NCBI GenBank assembly: GCA_902806345.1
Contig: CADCWF010000148.1
Location: forward strand, 6,724 to 70,723
Length of the DNA stretch: 64,000 nucleotides
Origin: an uncultured Thermomicrobiales bacterium
GTDB lineage: Bacteria; Chloroflexota; Chloroflexia; Thermomicrobiales; UBA6265
Reading direction: 5' to 3'
Made by a program: the position numbers and the translations under genes. The notes under the pieces are model-generated. The model made no database searches. It worked only from the letters and a program-made list of their open reading frames with translations, and was not told the origin of the DNA. Position 1 is the first letter of the stretch. Each line of letters begins with the position of its first letter. Below, in pieces: positions 12,958 to 20,858 of the stretch.

Positions 12958-14097
12958 TTACTCCCAGCCCACGATCAGGTCGTCGAGCGGGAGCCGGGGG
13001 CGCCGCACCGGGTCTTTGGCCGCAAAGCCGACAGCGATCAGGGCGTGCGGGTCGAGGGCCTCGGCGAGGCCGAGCGAGCGCCGCACGACGTCCGGGCAAA
13101 AGAGCGGCGCGCACATCCACCCGGCGTCGAGGCCGGAGGCGTAGAGGCTCAGCAGCAGATTCTGGACAGCTGCGCCCAGGCTCTGGATTGCCATCGTCCG
13201 CTCGGCCTCCTGCCGGGCCAGGTCGGGGTAGACATCCAGATCCTCCAGGTAGAGGCAAGGCACGATCAGCAACGGCGCCGTGGTCAAGCGCTCCCGGCTG
13301 CGCCCCAGGCGGTGGGCCACCGTCGCCGCGTCCTGCCCGTCGAGGTCGAGCTGCTCCCGCCAGGTGGCCGCCATCGCTTCGGCGAGGGAGGCACGGCGGT
13401 CGGCCGTTTCGACCACCGCAAAGCGCCACGGCTGGCGGCCGTGGGGCGACGGCGCCCACCCCGCCGCAGCGATCGCCGCCTCGACCAGCGGACGCGGCAC
13501 CGGGCGCGGGTCGAAGGCGCGGACCGAGCGACGGCCGGCGATCGTCGCCTCGAGCTCCTCCACCCCTGGCCGTGGCAACGGGTGCTCACCTCCGTCCGAG
13601 CGTGCGCCGGAGCCGGACCAGGAGGAGGCGCGGAGGTCGCCGATGGCGACGACCGGCCGCTCCTCGATCGGCATCGCCCGGTACTGGGCGTACTTTTCCC
13701 GCAGGGCGGCGACCGCGTCGGTGTGCCCGGACTCCCCCGGCTCGATCAGCCGCGCCGCTCCGCGGACCCGAACCCACGACAGCCCGGCCCACTCCTCGAC
13801 GTAGTCGTCGACGAGGAGGGTCACCGTCGGGTTGCGCTCGATGTTGCGGACTCGCGCCAGCTCCCGGCCGTCGACCCGCTTCGGCTTGTCGTCGAGGGCC
13901 GAGACGATAACCGGTTCGCCCGCGAGGTCGATCCGCGTGAAGCAGATCGGCACCACCGACGGCGCTCCCTGGCCGTCGACCGTGGCGAGGCGTCCGACAC
14001 GGTGGCCATCCAGGTAGGCCAACTCCGCCGCAGACGGTGACTGCCCGCCACCCTGCCCGGACGCTGTCGCCGTCGACGGCGCAATCTCGGCGACCAC
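12958..14097 (-). CDS. fusion protein: PPOX-class (F420-dependent-type) split-barrel domain + FbiB C-terminal-like nitroreductase domain
   Basis: N-terminal part: GRLATVDGQGAPSVVPICF...NIERNPTVTLLVD...LSWVRVRG. C-terminal part: RRSVRAF, PSPHGRQPWRF, YPD..R.EAERTMAIQSLGAAVQNLLL. The GTG start directly abuts the TAG stop of the upstream SBP gene (GGGGGAAGGTTAGGTG). Confidence 0.85.
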   Translation of the reverse strand: MVAEIAPSTATASGQGGGQSPSAAELAYLDGHRVGRLATVDGQGAPSVVPICFTRIDLAGEPVIVSALDDKPKRVDGRELARVRNIERNPTVTLLVDDYVEEWAGLSWVRVRGAARLIEPGESGHTDAVAALREKYAQYRAMPIEERPVVAIGDLRASSWSGSGARSDGGEHPLPRPGVEELEATIAGRRSVRAFDPRPVPRPLVEAAIAAAGWAPSPHGRQPWRFAVVETADRRASLAEAMAATWREQLDLDGQDAATVAHRLGRSRERLTTAPLLIVPCLYLEDLDVYPDLARQEAERTMAIQSLGAAVQNLLLSLYASGLDAGWMCAPLFCPDVVRRSLGLAEALDPHALIAVGFAAKDPVRRPRLPLDDLIVGWE

Positions 14098-15699
14098 CTA
14101 ACCTTCCCCCGCCACGGTCGGGATCAGGTAATCGTCGGCCCGCGGCGTCCAGGCCGGAACCTCCGAGCCGACCCCGTAGAGCCCCGTCAGGTTGTAGAGG
14201 TAGATCGCCGCAGGCTCGTCTCGGAGGCGCCGGCCTAGATCACGGTAGAGCTTCTCGCGGATGGACGGGTCTGGCTCGACCGCGGCGGCTTCGAGGGTCT
14301 TCTGGATGCCGACGTTGTCGTGACGAGAGAGGAACCCGGTGCTGGAGATGACCAGGCTCAGGAGGGTGTACGGGTCGAACAGCGGTCGCCACGTCGCGAA
14401 GCGGAGGGGGGCCGCGTCGAGGTCGGTCCAGGTCGCGTTGAAGGTGGCGGTCTCGACCGGCCGCACCTCGGCCCGGATGCCGACCGCCTCGAGCTGTCCG
14501 GCGATGGCGAGGACGATCTCCTCGCGCTCGGACGCGGCGTACTCGATCGCGGTCTCGAACCCCTTGCCGTACCCGGCCTCGGTCAACAGCGCCCGTGCCT
14601 GCTCCGGGTCGTAGGCGTAGGGCTTCAGCCCAGGATCCCAGCCGAGTCCGCCCTCGACGAAGAAGTTGGGCAGCCGGGCGCCGTTGCCGGCTAGAAGCGC
14701 CGCCACGATCGCGTCGACGTCGACCGCGAAGTTGAGCGCCTGCCGGACCCGGACGTCGTCGAACGGGGCCACGTCGGTCGGGACCCGGACCCAGGCGGCA
14801 CCGGAGAGCGGCTGGGCAACGAGGACCGCATCCTCCTCGACCGCGTCGATCTGATCGACCGGCACGCCGCGGATCAGGCCAGAGGTGCCGGAGAGCAGGT
14901 CGGAGACGCGGGTGGTCGCGTCGGGCACCGGCCGGATTCGGATCACGTCGGCGATGGCGTTGCCCTTCGGACTGTCCCCGAATACGTCCGGGTTGGCCTC
15001 CAGCCGGATCTCCCGTCCGCGGTCCCAGGCGACGAAACGGTACGGCCCCGTGCCGACCGGCTCCGCGGCGAAGTCGTTGGAGGGGTCGGCGGCGTAGTCC
15101 GGGGGCAGCATCGCCAGCCAGCCCGCCATCTGGGCCGGCAGCCAAGGCGCCGGCGCGGCCAGGCGGAACCGGACCAGCAGCGGCTCGACCTCTTCGACCT
15201 CCTCGATGACCGCGAAATTGGCCGCCACCTGCGACCCCGTCGCCGGGTCCTGGATGTGGGCGACGGAGAAGGCGACGGAGGCGGCGTCGAACGGCTCCCC
15301 GTTGTGGAAGACGACGCCCGGGCGGAGGCGCGCCTCCCAGGTGAGGGGGTCGGTCTGCTCCAGCGATTCGGCGAGCAGCGGCTGCAGCTCGCCGTCCGGC
15401 CCGTACTGGACAAGCGCGTCGTAGACGGAGTGGACGACCGACCACGAGTCGGCGTCGTAGACCACGGCCGGGTCGAGCGTCGCGGGCTCGGTCGCCAAGT
15501 CGATCGTCAACTCGGGGATCCGGTCGCCTGCCTGCCAGCGACCCGTTCGCCAACCCGGCGAGATCGGTTCGACAAGGCCGGCAGTGGCGAGCGCCGGGAA
15601 CGGGGCGGCACCGACGGAGCCCGCCGCCAACAAGACGCCGCCGGTCGCCTTCAACAGGTCTCGTCGAGCGAGCGAGATCGAAGTCCGAGTGCGAACCAT
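14098..15699 (-). CDS. ABC transporter substrate-binding protein, family 5 (peptide/nickel/opine type) with Tat signal
   Basis: Start ATG 15699 after GGAAGGAG. Signal MVRTRTSISLARRDLLKATGGVLLAAG. Body typical of DppA/OppA-like SBPs. Confidence 0.85.
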   Translation of the reverse strand: MVRTRTSISLARRDLLKATGGVLLAAGSVGAAPFPALATAGLVEPISPGWRTGRWQAGDRIPELTIDLATEPATLDPAVVYDADSWSVVHSVYDALVQYGPDGELQPLLAESLEQTDPLTWEARLRPGVVFHNGEPFDAASVAFSVAHIQDPATGSQVAANFAVIEEVEEVEPLLVRFRLAAPAPWLPAQMAGWLAMLPPDYAADPSNDFAAEPVGTGPYRFVAWDRGREIRLEANPDVFGDSPKGNAIADVIRIRPVPDATTRVSDLLSGTSGLIRGVPVDQIDAVEEDAVLVAQPLSGAAWVRVPTDVAPFDDVRVRQALNFAVDVDAIVAALLAGNGARLPNFFVEGGLGWDPGLKPYAYDPEQARALLTEAGYGKGFETAIEYAASEREEIVLAIAGQLEAVGIRAEVRPVETATFNATWTDLDAAPLRFATWRPLFDPYTLLSLVISSTGFLSRHDNVGIQKTLEAAAVEPDPSIREKLYRDLGRRLRDEPAAIYLYNLTGLYGVGSEVPAWTPRADDYLIPTVAGEG

Positions 15700-15755
15700 C
15701 GTTGCTCCTTCCATGCGTGGATCCGGAGGTTTGTCGTCCGTCGATCCGATCATCG

Positions 15756-17102
15756 TCAGCGCTCCGCCGCCGCGTCCCCGAGGAGATTCAGACCGAGGAC
15801 CGTCAGCGCCACGGCGGCGCCCGGCACGGCCGACACCCACGGCGCCTTGAGCAGCGCCTCTTGCCCTTCCGCCGCCATCCCGCCCCACGTCACCGCCGTC
15901 CCCCCGAGGCCGAGGCCGAGGTAGCTCAGCGACGCTTCGTAGAGGATCATCGCCGAGACCTGCTGCGTCGCCAGGATGGCGACGGTGCCGAGCAGATGGG
16001 GGGCGACGTGGCGCAGCACGAGGCGAGGGGCTCCCACGCCCAGCGCGACCGCTGCCTCAACCCATGCCGCCCGAGCGATCGCCCGCGTCTGGAGCCGCAC
16101 CACCCTCGCATAGCCGACCCACCCGGTCAGGACCAGCGTCAGCAGCACCGGCACCAAGCCGAAGCCGAGCGCGGCGGTCGCGGCGATCGCGACGACGACG
16201 AACGGCAGCGCCGCCTGGACATCGGTCAGCCAGCCGAGCGCACGGTCGGCGGGACCACCGGACCACCCGGCGACGGCGCCGAGGGTCACGCCGATCGCCC
16301 CCGCCCCGGCCGTGGCAGCTAGCCCGACCAGGAGCGAGACCCGCGCCCCGGCGACCAGCCGGGCGAGCAGATCGCGGCCGAGAGCGTCGGTACCGAGCGG
16401 GTGGGCAACGGTGCCGCCGAACCCGAGCGGCGGGGCCAAGCGGCCGAGCAGGTCTTGCCGGTTCGGGTCGGTCCCGACCAGCCCTGGACCGAAAATCGCG
16501 GCGACCACGAGGACCAGGGCGATGGTCCCTCCGACCACCACGGCAACGCTGGGCCGCGCCCGATGGCGGGAATTCGCCCGGGGACGAATCGCTCGCGTTG
16601 CGCCTCGGATCGATCCGTCCTCGACCCGCCCCTCTTCCTCCAGACCCGATCGCCTGCGGCCGGCCTGCTGGCCAGGACCGGCAGCCGCGCTTTCGAACGC
16701 GACCGCTGCTGGCCGGGATGAAGCCGCGATTGTCCCCGACTCCGAGGGGATCAAATGGCTCGAAGCTGATGGCCGGGGTTGGGGCGACGATGCTTGTCCG
16801 CTGCTCAGGCAGGACTTCGCCCGAGGCTGATCGGAGGCCTGGAGGGCCTTCGTCACCCCCGCATAGAACGCCAGCCCCGGTCCGTCGCCGAGCACCGAAG
16901 TTCGCCCCAACTGGGGTAACTGCTCCCGACCATCGTCCGGTACGGGCCAGGTGGCCGCCTGCCGAACAGCCTGGGAACGGGTTCCGAGCGAAGCGCGGTG
17001 ACCGGCGTCCTTCGCCGCGGCCACCGTGACCGCTCGGCTCGGCAACTGGACGGAGGCACCGTTGACCGACCGTCCCGGAGACCCCGAACATTTGACGATC
17101 AC
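15756..17102 (-). CDS. ABC transporter permease, DppC/OppC-like (start uncertain)
   Basis: The conserved permease core starts near 16600 (HPLGTDALGRDLLARL; EAA-loop region EAAVALGVGAPR). No ATG/GTG lies just upstream of the core. The only well-placed start is GTG 17102, which overlaps the dppB-like stop (GTGA) after GGAGGG. That start adds about 150 low-complexity residues. Confidence 0.7.
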   Translation of the reverse strand: MIVKCSGSPGRSVNGASVQLPSRAVTVAAAKDAGHRASLGTRSQAVRQAATWPVPDDGREQLPQLGRTSVLGDGPGLAFYAGVTKALQASDQPRAKSCLSSGQASSPQPRPSASSHLIPSESGTIAASSRPAAVAFESAAAGPGQQAGRRRSGLEEEGRVEDGSIRGATRAIRPRANSRHRARPSVAVVVGGTIALVLVVAAIFGPGLVGTDPNRQDLLGRLAPPLGFGGTVAHPLGTDALGRDLLARLVAGARVSLLVGLAATAGAGAIGVTLGAVAGWSGGPADRALGWLTDVQAALPFVVVAIAATAALGFGLVPVLLTLVLTGWVGYARVVRLQTRAIARAAWVEAAVALGVGAPRLVLRHVAPHLLGTVAILATQQVSAMILYEASLSYLGLGLGGTAVTWGGMAAEGQEALLKAPWVSAVPGAAVALTVLGLNLLGDAAAER

Positions 17103-18049
17103 GATGGCCCTCCGATCCCCGGGTCGAGCCGGAGCCGGGGGTCGAGCGAGCGGGCCGCCAGATCGACCAGCAGGTTGATCCCCACCAGGAGCGTCGCGAC
17201 GACGGCGACGAACGCCTGGACCACGGGTAAGTCGCGATCGGCGACCGCGTTCAGCGCCAGCAGACCCAACCCGGGGTAGGCGAAGACGGCCTCGACGACC
17301 GCCGCCCCGCCGAGCAGGAACCCCGCCTGGAACCCGGCGAACGCCAGCGTCGGCTGCAGCGCGTTCCCGAGCACGTGGCGGCGGAGCAGGGCAAACTCGG
17401 CAAGCCCCTTGCCGCGCGCGGTGCGGACATAGTCGGCTGCCAGCACCTGCCGGGTCGAGGCGCGGACCAGGCGGGCCACCGTCGCCAGTGGGAATGCCGC
17501 AAGGGTGATGGCCGGGAGCATCACGGAGGCGGGACCGTCGAAACCGGAGGCGGGCAGCCAGTGGAGCCGCACCGCGAAGAGCAGGATCAACATCGTGCCG
17601 AGCCAGAAGGCCGGCAGAGCCTGTCCGCCGAGCGCGACGAGGCGCGTCCCGTGGTCCAGCCAGCCGCCCACGTTCGCCCCGGCGCCAAGGCCGAGCAGGA
17701 TGCCACCCCCGACTGAGAGGAGACTCGCCGAGCCGACCAGCGCCAGCGTCGCCGGCAGTCGCTCCAGCGTGGCCGCTAGCGCCGGCCGCCCCTGCCGCCA
17801 CGACTCCCCGAACTCGCCGCGGGCGGCGTCGGCCAGGAAGGCGGCGTACTGCTCGGGCAGCGGCCGGTCGAGCCCGTACGCCTGCCGCAGCGCCGCCACA
17901 TCGGCCGGAGCGCTGCCGGGTGGGACGAGACCGGAAAGCGGGTCGCCGACGACGCGGAGGAGGACGAACACGACCGTGGCCACGCCGAGCAGGGTCGACG
18001 CCGCGAGGGCGCCCCGCCCGATCAGCCAGTGGACCATGCCCGCGCCCAT
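17099..18049 (-). CDS. ABC transporter permease, DppB/OppB-like
   Basis: N-terminus MGAGMVHWLIGRGALAASTLLGVATVVFVLLRVVGDP is typical of DppB. The ORF is open to GTG 18118; alternative starts are 18037 and 18049. Confidence 0.85.
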   Translation of the reverse strand: MGAGMVHWLIGRGALAASTLLGVATVVFVLLRVVGDPLSGLVPPGSAPADVAALRQAYGLDRPLPEQYAAFLADAARGEFGESWRQGRPALAATLERLPATLALVGSASLLSVGGGILLGLGAGANVGGWLDHGTRLVALGGQALPAFWLGTMLILLFAVRLHWLPASGFDGPASVMLPAITLAAFPLATVARLVRASTRQVLAADYVRTARGKGLAEFALLRRHVLGNALQPTLAFAGFQAGFLLGGAAVVEAVFAYPGLGLLALNAVADRDLPVVQAFVAVVATLLVGINLLVDLAARSLDPRLRLDPGIGGPS

Positions 18050-18147
18050 ACCACGCCCCCGTCTACGCCGAGTCCGGTGCGCAACCGTTCGACGCCCGGT
18101 GCATCGACGCCCGGTCACCGCAACCGTCGGCTACCTCCCCGCGGCAC

Positions 18148-18179
18148 AAAAAAAACCCGGGGCACTCGGCCCTCGGGTC
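18148..18179 (-). terminator. intrinsic terminator (riboswitch expression platform)
   Basis: Minus strand ACCCGAGGGC-CGAGU-GCCCCGGGU forms 9 bp with 1 bulge and is followed by U8. It lies between the aptamer and the first permease gene. Confidence 0.7.
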
Positions 18180-18230
18180 TGGCGGCGGTTTCGGGAAGCA
18201 CGGCTACGCCGACGGCTACCGCCGCGGCGC

Positions 18231-18371
18231 GCCTTCTCCCATCCGGACTCTACCGTCGGCTCCGGAATCCCACCGGATCGTGCTCGCGCGACGTCGCGCG
18301 CTCGCTCGCGGGCTCTACCGCCGGTCAGGACTTGGCCGACTGGAACGCCGACCTCACCTCACCCCGAAGGC
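18231..18371 (-). promoter_or_regulatory. FMN riboswitch (RFN element) aptamer
   Basis: Minus strand GCCUUCGGGGUGAGGUGA[hairpin insert]AAGUCCUGACCGGCGGUAGAGCCCGCGAGC...GAUCCGGUGGGAUUCCGGAGCCGACGGUAGAGUCCGGAUGGGAGAAGGC. This matches the conserved RFN blocks as recalled from the B. subtilis ribD leader. P1 is GCCUUC/GAAGGC. Confidence 0.85.
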
Positions 18372-18382
18372 TCTGCTTACCA

Positions 18383-18411
18383 AGCATAAGCGCGGAGAGC
18401 GAGACCGTCAA
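18383..18411 (-). promoter_or_regulatory. sigma-70-type promoter for the riboswitch leader
   Basis: Minus strand TTGACG (18411-18406), 17-nt spacer, TATGCT (18388-18383), about 12 nt upstream of the aptamer P1. Confidence 0.55.
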
Positions 18412-18769: not shown

Positions 18770-19282
18770 TCAGCACCCGTACTGGCAGACCCCTTGGGCG
18801 CCGGGAAGCCCTGGGTAGGAGGAGCAGCAGACGAGACCGAAGTCGCACGGCTGAAAGGTGCCGGAGGCGCAGGCGCAGCCGAGGCCGGTGCATCTGACCG
18901 TGTCGCAGGTGCCGTACTGGCCGCAGTAGCCGCTGCAGCAGCCAGGGCAGGTGTCGCCCCAGTTGCACGACCCGGAGCAGCCGCCGCCGTTCCCGGTGCA
19001 TGCCCCGCCGCAGTCGGCCGGGCTGGAGCAGACGCCTCCTCCCCCCGGAGTGCCGGGGCTGCTCGGGCAACAGACCAGGCCATTGCCGCAGGCATGGCGA
19101 GTCCCGGTGGCACAGCCGCAGCCGATGTAGTTGCAGTGGTCCGCCCGCGTCCCGTCGGGTGCCAACACGGCCCGTCCGAGCAGGGCAGCGACGGCGGCCA
19201 CGGCAACCCGGCGCAGAGCGCCGCGCCGGGAGGACGAGGACGCGAGACCGCGGGCGAGCGCGTCGAACCGTCGCGGTTCCAT
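18770..19282 (-). CDS. secreted cysteine-rich protein (24 Cys, duplicated Cys module + knottin-like core), Tat-type signal
   Basis: ATG 19282 lies 9 nt after GGAGGAGG. Signal MEPRRFDALARGLASSSSRRGALRRVAVAAVAALLGRAVLA. The mature part carries two copies of C-x4-C-x-C-x7-C-x5-CC-x12-C. Confidence 0.75.
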   Translation of the reverse strand: MEPRRFDALARGLASSSSRRGALRRVAVAAVAALLGRAVLAPDGTRADHCNYIGCGCATGTRHACGNGLVCCPSSPGTPGGGGVCSSPADCGGACTGNGGGCSGSCNWGDTCPGCCSGYCGQYGTCDTVRCTGLGCACASGTFQPCDFGLVCCSSYPGLPGAQGVCQYGC

Positions 19283-19454
19283 CGAGGAAGCCTCCTCCGG
19301 TATCAGTTGTCCCCCGAGGGGGTGAGGCTTGTAGGCTACGTGGGCACGAGCCGGACCGCAACCGCCATATCTGCCGCCGATCGCGGGCGATTCCAGCGAG
19401 TCTCGTCTGTCCGGATCGGCCCATCGGCGGCACAGGGGGACGCTCTCCGGTGCG

Positions 19455-20858
19455 TCACGATGGGGCACCTTCGGCGGCGGGACTCGTCTGCCACGATCCT
19501 GGGTCTGGGATGGGTACGGCCTCGCGCAGCGACCGCAGCGGCGAGAGCAGCAGCCAAGCGAACGCGACGAGCATTCCGAGCTCCCCTACCACCAGCGTTC
19601 CCGCCAGGCCGATAGCTCCGCCGAGCACGCCGCCGAGGAGCGATCCGATCGGACGCAGCCCCCAGACGAGGAAGCGGACCGTGCCGTTGACTCGGCCGGC
19701 GAGTCGATCCGGTACGATCGCCTGACGGAGGCTGATGGCGTTGACGTCGTAGGCGACGATGGCCATCCACTGGAGGAACTCCGAGGCGACGACGAGCGGC
19801 AACGCGCACCGCGGCGCGAGCACCGCCAGCGGCACCAGCAGCCCGGTTGCCCCGAACAGGAACATGGCGCCGACGATGGTCGGGCCCTGCCCGAAGCGAG
19901 CCCGCGCCGGTCCGGCGACGAGGCTCCCGGCCAGGGCGCCGACGCCTCCCGTCGCCAGGACCAGCCCGACCTCACCCGCGTCCAGACCGAGGTCCCGCGT
20001 CATGAACAGGACGTAGACGGCGAGGAAGGCAAAGCCCGCCACCTGGACCGTCGCCGAGGCGAAAACCAGCGCCCGAAGCACCTCGCTCCGCCGGACCACC
20101 GAGAGCCCCTCCCCGATCTCCGTCCAAACACCGGACCGCTCGGCGGCGGGAGTTCGCGCCGGTTCGGGCGACTTAATCCGCCAGAGCAGGGCGCCGGAAA
20201 CCACGAACGACGCTGCGTCGACCACCAGCGCAAACGGCCCGCCGAGGACCCGAACCAGCACCCCGCCGAGCCCCGGCCCGACAATCTGTGCGGCCGACGC
20301 GGTCGCCTCGAGCCGGCTGTTGCCGTCGACGAGCTGCCGGCGCTCGACCAGCGCCGGCAGGTAGGAGAGGTAGGCGACATCGAAGAAGACCGTCAGCGTG
20401 CCGGCCAGGAGGGCGACCGCGTAGAGCACCTCGATCGTCAAGGCGTTTAGCAGCCACGCCGCCGGGATGACGGCGAAAATGGCGGCCCGTCCGACGTCGG
20501 CGGCGATCATCACCGGCCGCCGTGGCCAGCGGTCGACCAGGACCCCGGCGAAGAGCCCGACGAGAAGGAACGGCAGCCAGCCGAGCGCGGCCAGCAGCCC
20601 GGTCTCGAACGGCGACGCCGCGAGCGTCGTCGCCGCGATCAGCGGCAGCGCCAATGCAGAGACGTGGGTGCCGAACTGCGACACCGCCTGGGCGCCCCAG
20701 AACCGGAGGAAATCTGGGTGCCGGAGCAGCGGCCGCGACGACTCGGGCGGAACGCCGCCGGATGACGGGAGCGGAACGCTCTGCCCGAGAGGAGACGGGC
20801 CAGCGTCGGAGGGCAGCCCGGGGACGACCCCGGGCTCGTCGTGGCTTGTCGAAGACAT
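19455..20858 (-). CDS. MFS transporter (EntS/MFS_3-like)
   Basis: About 467-aa polytopic protein. RHPDFLRFWGAQAVSQFGT is the typical N-terminus of this MFS subfamily. Start placed at ATG 20858; the ORF is open to 21083. Confidence 0.8.
   Translation of the reverse strand: MSSTSHDEPGVVPGLPSDAGPSPLGQSVPLPSSGGVPPESSRPLLRHPDFLRFWGAQAVSQFGTHVSALALPLIAATTLAASPFETGLLAALGWLPFLLVGLFAGVLVDRWPRRPVMIAADVGRAAIFAVIPAAWLLNALTIEVLYAVALLAGTLTVFFDVAYLSYLPALVERRQLVDGNSRLEATASAAQIVGPGLGGVLVRVLGGPFALVVDAASFVVSGALLWRIKSPEPARTPAAERSGVWTEIGEGLSVVRRSEVLRALVFASATVQVAGFAFLAVYVLFMTRDLGLDAGEVGLVLATGGVGALAGSLVAGPARARFGQGPTIVGAMFLFGATGLLVPLAVLAPRCALPLVVASEFLQWMAIVAYDVNAISLRQAIVPDRLAGRVNGTVRFLVWGLRPIGSLLGGVLGGAIGLAGTLVVGELGMLVAFAWLLLSPLRSLREAVPIPDPGSWQTSPAAEGAPS

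Follow-up and report, generated by a model that had tools for sequence, protein, structure and literature searches.

The window, by which we mean the whole 64-kb stretch of DNA analysed here, contains a minus-strand operon that begins with a canonical FMN riboswitch and whose last gene encodes a PPOX-class domain fused to a nitroreductase (NTR) domain. The features are given below in the order of transcription, followed by the parts of the fusion protein.

18383..18411, minus strand: promoter-like site, TTGACG-17-TATGCT, shortly before the aptamer
18227..18375, minus strand: FMN riboswitch aptamer (RF00050), scoring 84.6 bits (gathering score 66.2), with canonical conserved cores
18148..18177, minus strand: terminator-like hairpin followed by eight U, read from the sequence
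17099..18049, minus strand: ABC permease 1 (DppB-like), likely start ATG 18049 or 18037
16600..17098, minus strand: spacer of about 450–500 nt between the permease genes, present in this window only
15756..16541, minus strand: ABC permease 2 (OppC/DppC-like), start uncertain (GTG 16541 or TTG 16754)
14098..15753, minus strand: family-5 (Dpp/Opp/Nik-type) binding protein (SBP) with a twin-arginine signal, conserved upstream of the fusion at 25 loci
12958..14097, minus strand: PPOX (TIGR03668/FDOR-B2)–NTR (FbiE-like) fusion gene, 379 aa, GTG start, assigned from profile searches, structure matches and the predicted structure
About residues 27–161 of the fusion: N-domain
Residues 166–177 of the fusion: disordered linker joining both domains
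About residues 186–376 of the fusion: NTR domain

The GTG of the fusion lies directly after the TAG of the SBP gene, and the junction on the coding strand reads GGGGGAAGG-T-TAG-GTG, with an SD-like GGAAGG 4 nt upstream of the GTG. The preliminary description had recognised both this contiguous stop and start and the two-domain ORF, which is real, but its range of 12958–14100 took in the SBP stop codon at 14098–14100. The same fusion start was also called independently in another assembly. The maximal ORF of the SBP extends to 15888 with the likely ATG at 15753, 2 nt past the permease 2 stop, while that of permease 1 extends to 18118. No repeat, Rfam family or coding signal was found in the spacer between the two permease genes.

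We note that the hairpin, which is probably the expression platform of the riboswitch, was omitted by a simple terminator scan because of a bulge in its stem, and that MFE folding of the riboswitch leader left the terminator and antiterminator alternatives unseparated. An FMN riboswitch of variant specificity was considered and rejected, as far as can be judged from the sequence, since the aptamer cores are all canonical. The scan found terminator-like sites within the operon at no more than chance level, and the aptamer lies upstream of the fusion on the same strand without an intervening terminator; the fusion is probably co-transcribed with the transporter genes and probably coupled to them in translation as well. 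The coupling to an FMN-regulated transporter proposed earlier is borne out by the RF00050 score and by the retention of this arrangement in 25 of 80 related loci, the 25 falling in one Thermomicrobiales subclade that includes the window.

Two permeases and one binding protein make up the transporter cassette, which lacks an ATPase and is probably a flavin importer. The published riboflavin importers under FMN riboswitches (RibU, RibM, RibN, ImpX, RfnT, RibZ, RibV, RfuABCD and RibXY; PMC4418817) likewise have a canonical FMN aptamer before the transporter genes, and in RibXY the ATPase gene is also absent from the operon. However, no system on that list combines DppB/DppC-type permeases with a family-5 binding protein, and unlike those importers, the operon in the window ends with a predicted F420-pathway enzyme.

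Pfam profile searches of the fusion protein placed PNPOx_N at residues 27–138 (6e-13) and Nitroreductase PF00881 at residues 186–357 (2e-30). With the NCBIfam models, the N-terminal half scored 138.8 bits for TIGR03668 (Rv0121-type PPOX), above the cutoff of 119.15, and the N-domain matched PDB 4ZKY and 5JV4 (E 2e-16) with a Foldseek TM of 0.86 against the F420-bound 5JV4. These results and the predicted structure agree in making the N-terminal half an Rv0121-type PPOX protein as first described, and by family membership it would bind F420. The identification of the C-terminal half as an FbiB-C-terminal-like nitroreductase was upheld by Pfam, the closest solved structures and the predicted structure (the best PDB match of the NTR half was the FbiB C-domain with E 6e-32 and a Foldseek TM of 0.81–0.86), although TIGR03553 for the FbiB C-terminal domain gave 168.1 bits, below its cutoff of 249.55. 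Every motif quoted in the preliminary description is present in the translation, with VGRLATV (34–40), VVPICF (48–53), NIERNPTVTLLVD (85–97) and WVRVRG (108–113) in the N-terminal half, and RRSVRAF (189–195), PSPHGRQPWRF (216–226), WREQLDLDG (246–254), YPDLARQEAERTMAIQSLGAAVQNLLL (290–316) and DLIVGW (373–378) in the C-terminal half. FbiB-type matches dominated when rival subfamilies were considered, with the BluB model TIGR02476 reaching 66.1 bits, far under its 150-bit cutoff. Profile searches gave no PF01996 or TIGR01916 match for a CofE domain in the fusion, and the NF009810 match spans model positions 257–447 only. The AlphaFold model (pTM 0.57) has no confident inter-domain interface.

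The SBP and fusion ORFs share one frame in the window with a lone TAG between them, and this raises the question of whether the fusion is a single gene, or instead two genes falsely joined or an extension of the SBP produced by read-through. Both domains are present in all 120 of the best database homologues, which are 347–391 aa long, and the fusion is encoded, with its two-domain ORF unbroken, in the genomes of at least 582 species; it is therefore not an assembly artefact, and the separate halves that would have undone the preliminary description did not materialise. Junctions in relatives have short gaps or overlaps of varying spacing and share a frame in just two of 25 cases, and the enzyme domains are of cytoplasmic type, unlike the SBP with its export signal. 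We discarded a single SBP–fusion polypeptide made by read-through on these grounds, and consider any reading as other than one gene to be hardly credible.

The stand-alone DF420 reductase of Thermomicrobia was reportedly described by Braga et al. in 2020. According to reviews, T. roseum reduces DF420 by a stand-alone homologue of the FbiB C-domain called FbiE (PMC8498797, PMC8764529), and T. roseum WP_012643075 is likely to be an example of this type of reductase. It has the NTR fold, comes from the same phylum, and occupies the position in an F420 cluster that the fusion has in relatives. However, it is a single-domain protein of 225 aa, whereas the fusion adds a 165-aa TIGR03668 domain and the linker in front; in T. 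roseum the TIGR03668 protein has its own gene on the megaplasmid, about 555 kb distant and, as in actinobacteria, unlinked to F420 genes. A search of the T. roseum NTR locus found no riboswitch, unlike the operon in the window. The NTR half of the fusion shares 61.3% identity with the T. roseum nitroreductase of the cofD-cofC-DMT-NTR cluster, which also scored under the TIGR03553 cutoff (163.4 bits) and suggests that a score such as that of the fusion is normal for Thermomicrobia. Other PPOX–NTR and CofC–NTR fusions scanned were also under this cutoff, and only one complete FbiB-type sequence passed (322 bits), so the cutoff looks tuned to FbiB proper.

Among solved structures the FbiB C-domain is the best match in both sequence and fold (about 39–41% identity to the fusion NTR), and FMN-dependent chemistry is presumably common to the two. 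FbiB differs in having a CofE ligase domain at the N-terminus where the fusion has a member of a PPOX-class F420-binding family, and in relatives CofE has its own gene. In the FbiB model DF420-0 is held by P289, R337 and M372 (PMC6450877), which align to P218, R266 and M302 of the fusion. Across 40 homologues P218 and M302 never vary, while position 266 is mostly K (R in the window protein). Members of TIGR03668/FDOR-B2 (Rv0121c; MSMEG_6526, PDB 4ZKY, and 5JV4 with F420) are about 140 aa long, like the N-domain; known members stand alone, whereas the domain in the fusion is covalently tied to a predicted DF420 reductase. The literature searched gives no functional assignment for TIGR03668/FDOR-B2 (Rv0121c) and does not mention such a fusion.

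The genomes that encode the fusion belong to the Thermomicrobiales, other Chloroflexota and Rubrobacter, complete ones among them being Rubrobacter marinus CP045121 and Ktedonobacterales CP126532, and it is undescribed rather than rare. The earlier view that this architecture is not a described enzyme stands for the literature searched (Braga et al. 2020 lies outside that search), but databases contain many examples of it under generic annotations. We also note that database names given to homologues, such as 'F420-0:L-glutamate ligase', are over-annotation.

The fusion is often found inside F420 gene clusters or adjoining fbiC, with cofC, cofD, cofE or fbiC nearby in 27 of 80 related loci and in 23 of the 35 which have at least 6 kb of upstream sequence, typically in the order cofD-cofC-cofE-LLM-fusion (the cof and fbi genes of relatives were verified by NCBIfam equivalog models over cutoff). 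CofE is a single-domain protein in these clusters, and a separate reductase is therefore needed. The F420 link made in the preliminary description is strengthened by this context and by the identity to the T. roseum NTR. The F420 genes it had thought worth looking for were found in these relatives, but tblastn with verified CofC, CofD, CofE, FbiC and LLM representatives found no cof or fbi gene in the 64-kb window, and F420 synthesis in the source genome is therefore inferred from the relatives. An FMN aptamer is present at 13 related loci, among them every one of the nine cassette loci that have sufficient upstream sequence. At five cassette loci the riboswitch comes directly after cof genes, which suggests insertion of the cassette into an F420 cluster.

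Fusion partners of this NTR clade in other lineages are CofC, CofD or CofE, all of them enzymes that make F420, which leaves TIGR03668 as the only identified partner without a known role in the F420 pathway (a few other extensions in the clade have no match to F420 families). Two further candidates were discarded: a split PPOX and NTR gene pair beside the closest stand-alone NTR (P0121), where the upstream ORF proved unrelated, and a reversed-order NTR–PPOX fusion (P0125), for which NCBIfam gave no support.

From homology, the conserved substrate-pocket residues and gene context, we think it very probable that the NTR domain finishes F420 by reducing dehydro-F420-0 (DF420-0), and the pairing with a PPOX domain hints at the source of the electrons. 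On balance we favour an FbiE-type DF420-0 reductase in which the N-domain, fed by F420H2, re-reduces FMN, and which is co-transcribed with an importer under FMN riboswitch control. The FMN-dependent NTR domain would use FMNH2 to reduce the enolpyruvyl methylene of DF420-0 by hydride transfer, yielding F420-0, and the fused N-domain on its flexible linker would bind F420H2 (or DF420H2) and re-reduce the FMN, a step suggested by the pattern of fusions, so that the enzyme would carry its own electron supply. In this lineage the cassette separates the reductase gene from the cof genes, and low FMN would switch on reductase and importer in a single transcript. The literature searched names no physiological donor of FMNH2 to FbiB or FbiE, and the in-vitro FbiB/FbiE assay uses E. 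coli Fre as the source of reductant. The favoured reading is weakened by the logic, odd for a housekeeping step of biosynthesis, of an OFF-type riboswitch which would repress an FMN-dependent enzyme when FMN is plentiful. The sub-cutoff TIGR03553 score, the window without cof or fbi genes, the TIGR03668 proteins unlinked to F420 genes in T. roseum and actinobacteria, and the lack of a confident inter-domain interface also count against it. In addition, heterologous F420 production has been reported with FbiB, and the abstract of Braga et al. 2020 is said to report it with only the stand-alone NTR, so the PPOX half is dispensable.

The F420 domain might have a different part to play if the C-domain is a DF420-0 reductase and the TIGR03668 domain binds and hands on DF420-0 or F420-0 (for example to CofE), or carries out some other F420H2-dependent reduction. 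MSMEG_6526 was crystallised with F420 and has weak and promiscuous reductase activity, the FbiB C-domain has an F420 site of its own, and the lack of a predicted inter-domain interface would suit a carrier. However, the FbiB NTR domain binds DF420 directly and no need for a carrier was found, FDOR-B enzymes are catalytic hydride transferases, and the other identified fusion partners of the NTR clade are pathway enzymes; we regard this as rather unlikely.

It is more doubtful still that the fusion acts outside F420 biosynthesis on an imported flavin or analogue, by processing, salvage, detoxification or BluB-like cleavage. Such a role would fit the operon coupling to the importer and FMN riboswitch kept in 25 loci, the window without cof genes and the weak match to the BluB model, but that score is far below cutoff and FbiB-type matches dominate, the fusion occurs without the transporter in 55 of the 80 loci, many of these within cof clusters, and the cof genes directly upstream of the riboswitch in five cassette loci also argue against it. 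Promiscuity is well known in the NTR and FDOR families, and in a few loci MarR, YceI and NADPH-FMN-reductase-like genes flank the fusion on the opposite strand, as might be expected of a general detoxification enzyme of the nitroreductase type that depends on F420H2 or NAD(P)H and serves no particular pathway. This seems very improbable given that the nearest relatives are specifically FbiB-C and FbiE, that the fusion retains the DF420 pocket residues, and that its place in cof clusters is conserved.

Returning to the self-supplied DF420-0 reductase, the fusion may tentatively be read as a Rosetta stone in which the orphan TIGR03668/FDOR-B2 family (in M. tuberculosis, Rv0121c) is the missing physiological electron partner of DF420 reductases, an F420H2 (or DF420H2):FMN oxidoreductase, with, as a separate matter, this step and a hitherto undescribed Dpp-type flavin importer placed under FMN riboswitch control in a Thermomicrobiales clade; we offer this wider proposal as possible rather than probable. 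F420 has roles in the activation of tuberculosis drugs (pretomanid and delamanid), antibiotic biosynthesis, methanogenesis and biocatalysis, and the conserved fusion of these two modules provides a concrete and cheap hypothesis on the electron supply of FbiB and FbiE. The cassette may also represent a new family of ABC importers for flavins. If the proposal is true, F420 maturation would be self-priming, and a single self-sufficient reductase could make F420 easier to produce in heterologous hosts. To our knowledge, control of a deazaflavin-pathway gene by FMN sensing would be without precedent, and through the riboswitch it would tie production of the deazaflavin cofactor directly to flavin status, as a form of regulatory cross-talk.

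The gene directly downstream of the family-5 solute-binding protein (SBP) gene encodes a fusion of a PPOX-class (Rv0121-type) N-terminal half with an FbiB-C-like nitroreductase (NTR), as the preliminary description had proposed from motifs that are all found in the translation. The gene and the regulatory elements ahead of its operon are as follows:

12958–14097, minus strand: fusion ORF, 379 aa, GTG start
18148–18177, minus strand: GC-rich hairpin with a bulge, then eight U, downstream of the aptamer
18227–18375, minus strand: FMN riboswitch aptamer (Rfam), conserved cores all canonical

Pfam places PNPOx_N at residues 27–138 and Nitroreductase at residues 186–357, and in the NCBIfam searches the N-terminal half passes TIGR03668 (Rv0121 family; 138.8 bits vs a cutoff of 119.15) and the C-terminal half is below the cutoff of TIGR03553 (FbiB C-terminal domain; 168.1 vs 249.55 bits). 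BluB was rejected as the identity of the C-terminal half, with only 66 bits vs a cutoff of 150. Amongst solved structures, the C-terminal half is closest in sequence to the C-terminal domain of M. tuberculosis FbiB (4XOM/4XOO/4XOQ; E 6e-32), and the N-terminal half to the F420-binding FDOR-B2 protein MSMEG_6526 (4ZKY/5JV4; E 2e-16). An AlphaFold2 model based on an alignment of 40 homologues has two confident domains (pLDDT >90) joined by a disordered linker (residues 166–177), with no confidence in their mutual orientation and no predicted inter-domain interface (pTM 0.57), and its best Foldseek matches are again FbiB-C (target TM 0.81–0.86) and the F420-bound 5JV4 (0.86).

In a tblastn search of plasmid records, the C-terminal half showed 61.3% identity to a protein of 225 aa on the Thermomicrobium roseum megaplasmid, annotated as 'nitroreductase family protein', the gene for which lies in a cofD–cofC–DMT transporter–NTR cluster. 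In T. roseum, dehydro-F420 is reduced by FbiE, an independent homologue of FbiB's C-terminal domain (PMC8498797, PMC8764529), and this locus is likely to be the source of FbiE. As a control, the T. roseum NTR scored 163.4 bits on TIGR03553, practically equal to the window protein, and since it is also below the cutoff, failure on this model does not set the window protein apart from the likely FbiE. In the FbiB model of Bashiri et al., the methylene of dehydro-F420-0 (DF420-0) sits in a P289 and M372 pocket with the carboxylate on R337 (PMC6450877); in a HMMER alignment P289, R337 and M372 correspond to P218, R266 and M302 of the fusion protein, with P218 and M302 invariant in 40 homologues and position 266 mostly K (R in the window protein). 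TIGR03668, fused in the window protein, is in contrast a separate 143-aa protein encoded elsewhere on the T. roseum megaplasmid, and is present in mycobacteria as Rv0121c/MSMEG_6526. We note that the stand-alone TIGR03668 gene and the cofD–cofC–DMT–NTR cluster each have metallophosphoesterase, nucleotidyltransferase and HEPN genes as neighbours (NC_011961; loci L081 2800–6899 and L082 6803–8632), and this duplicated module may mark a rearrangement that parted the two.

When the NTR half by itself was used as the profile for an exhaustive search, 87 of 1.84 billion cluster representatives matched at E <1e-30. The nearest unfused relatives are stand-alone proteins about 216–226 aa long, with identities of 63% and 57%; one is encoded inside a cofE–NTR–cofD–cofC cluster, and approximately 99 of the best 150 representatives are stand-alone. 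The fused proteins amongst these 150 include CofE–NTR (FbiB), CofC–NTR (P0130, P0235), NTR–CofD (P0137) and TIGR03668–NTR (P0020, P0187, P0252); a few further extensions match no F420 family, and we found no discussion of CofC–NTR or NTR–CofD, which belong to other lineages, in the literature searched. All identifiable partners are F420-biosynthesis enzymes save the TIGR03668 domain, and because it is the sole identified exception we propose a pathway role for it too. In one locus with a stand-alone NTR (L085 187–2592; GCA_003967575.1, BIFT01000001), an FMN riboswitch (116.5 bits), RibX/RibY-like permease and NMT1 binding protein lie ~1.6 kb from cofE–NTR–cofD–cofC, placing a second, unrelated flavin transporter near F420 genes.

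The fusion is widely distributed, with all 120 of the best matches in a 5.8-billion-protein collection having both domains (about 350–390 aa) and relatives encoded in at least 582 genomes (one genome per species), the best 80 loci of which are from Thermomicrobiales, Sphaerobacteraceae, other Chloroflexia, Ktedonobacterales and Rubrobacter. Most of the 120 are unnamed or bear generic names, and some are wrongly named as F420 glutamate ligases; many homologues with JGI names are called 'coenzyme F420-0:L-glutamate ligase' despite having no CofE domain, a mis-annotation propagated from FbiB. Neighbours were mapped by clustering flanking ORFs and by tblastn with representatives verified above the cutoffs of NCBIfam equivalog models (CofD, CofC, CofE, FbiC and the TIGR03557 LLM-class F420-dependent oxidoreductase). 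Three layouts recur: cofD–cofC–cofE–LLM–fusion in many Chloroflexota, the fusion adjoining fbiC in Rubrobacter, and two permeases followed by SBP–fusion in 25 loci that are the window's closest relatives. An LLM dehydrogenase-like gene, F420-dependent by family model, is immediately upstream of the fusion in 37 loci (L040 1159–2169 and 36 others); it passes TIGR03557 (F420 G6PDH-like family), and TIGR03885 'flavin_revert' (FMN-dependent) scores higher yet remains below its own cutoff. The F420 pathway genes (cofC, cofD, cofE, fbiC) whose presence had been made a check on the fusion are thus found near it in relatives, but tblastn found no cof or fbi gene within the 64-kb window and, as in three other cassette loci, none adjoins the cassette. 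In five cassette loci cofD–cofC–cofE–LLM is directly upstream of the riboswitch, and the cassette therefore looks like an insertion separating the reductase gene from the F420 genes.

The coupling to an FMN-regulated transporter described earlier was also confirmed. The FMN aptamer, the sole Rfam family in the window, is full-length (84.6 bits vs a gathering score of 66.2) with a promoter-like TTGACG-17-TATGCT upstream, and the hairpin and U-run downstream are the usual OFF-type attenuator layout. Then come DppB-like and OppC/DppC-like permeases, the SBP, which carries a twin-arginine signal, and the fusion, followed by a convergent M20 peptidase gene; the operon has no ATPase gene, as is also the case for RibXY. 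The permeases have an FMN aptamer ahead of them in 9/9 cassette loci with enough upstream sequence, and in 13 loci overall. On the coding strand the SBP stop and fusion start are contiguous (GGGGGAAGG-T-TAG-GTG), with a Shine-Dalgarno-like GGAAGG 4 nt upstream of the GTG. SBP–fusion spacing is tight across the clade (mostly –8 to +113 nt), which supports co-transcription. The two ORFs share one reading frame, with the TAG (14098–14100) alone between them and the fusion starting from 14097, and as a shared frame is seen in only 2/25 related junctions we regard this as coincidence. A spacer of ~450–500 nt (16600–17098, minus strand) separates the permease 1 stop from the conserved part of permease 2; it has no standout coding frame (GC3 0.65–0.73 in all three), repeat or Rfam match, and is missing from related loci, where the permease genes abut. 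Just 5' of the riboswitch, in a position occupied by cof genes in several relatives, lies a gene (18770–19468, minus strand) for a 232-aa protein that is rich in cysteine, carries a twin-arginine-type signal and matches no Pfam family. No Dpp-type system is included amongst published FMN-riboswitch riboflavin transporters (PMC4418817, PMC3766115), making the importer itself a candidate new flavin transporter, and the ABC operon (14098–18118, minus strand; loci L001–L024 and L061) may represent a new family of flavin (or FO) importers.

Homology and gene context support a role for the C-terminal domain as a putative FMN-dependent DF420-0 reductase, which would act after CofC/CofD and before or alongside single-domain CofE. 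The link to F420-type chemistry suggested earlier is supported by the cof/fbiC neighbours of relatives, the identity to the T. roseum cluster NTR and the kept pocket residues. We infer that the N-terminal domain might supply electrons, drawing on F420H2 to restore the FMNH2 that the tethered NTR domain uses; the E0' of F420H2 is about –340 mV, more negative than that of FMN. In favour of this, FbiB depended in vitro on E. coli Fre as an outside flavin reductase (PMC6450877), its physiological donor is not described in the reviews consulted, up to 2026, FDOR-B enzymes transfer hydride from F420H2 (PMC8498797), and the upstream LLM gene also counts towards it. Against it are the unlinked TIGR03668 gene in T. 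roseum and mycobacteria and the lack of a predicted inter-domain interface, and the domain is reportedly dispensable in heterologous systems.

We found no description of a PPOX–NTR fusion in the literature searched. Our analyses support it as a probable, widespread variant of the dehydro-F420 reductase with a fused orphan F420-binding domain, and support its control in this lineage by an FMN riboswitch. Behind an OFF-type switch, the reductase would be produced along with the importer at low FMN, and we speculate that this might make up for poor FMN loading of the reductase or reflect co-induction with flavin (or FO) salvage.
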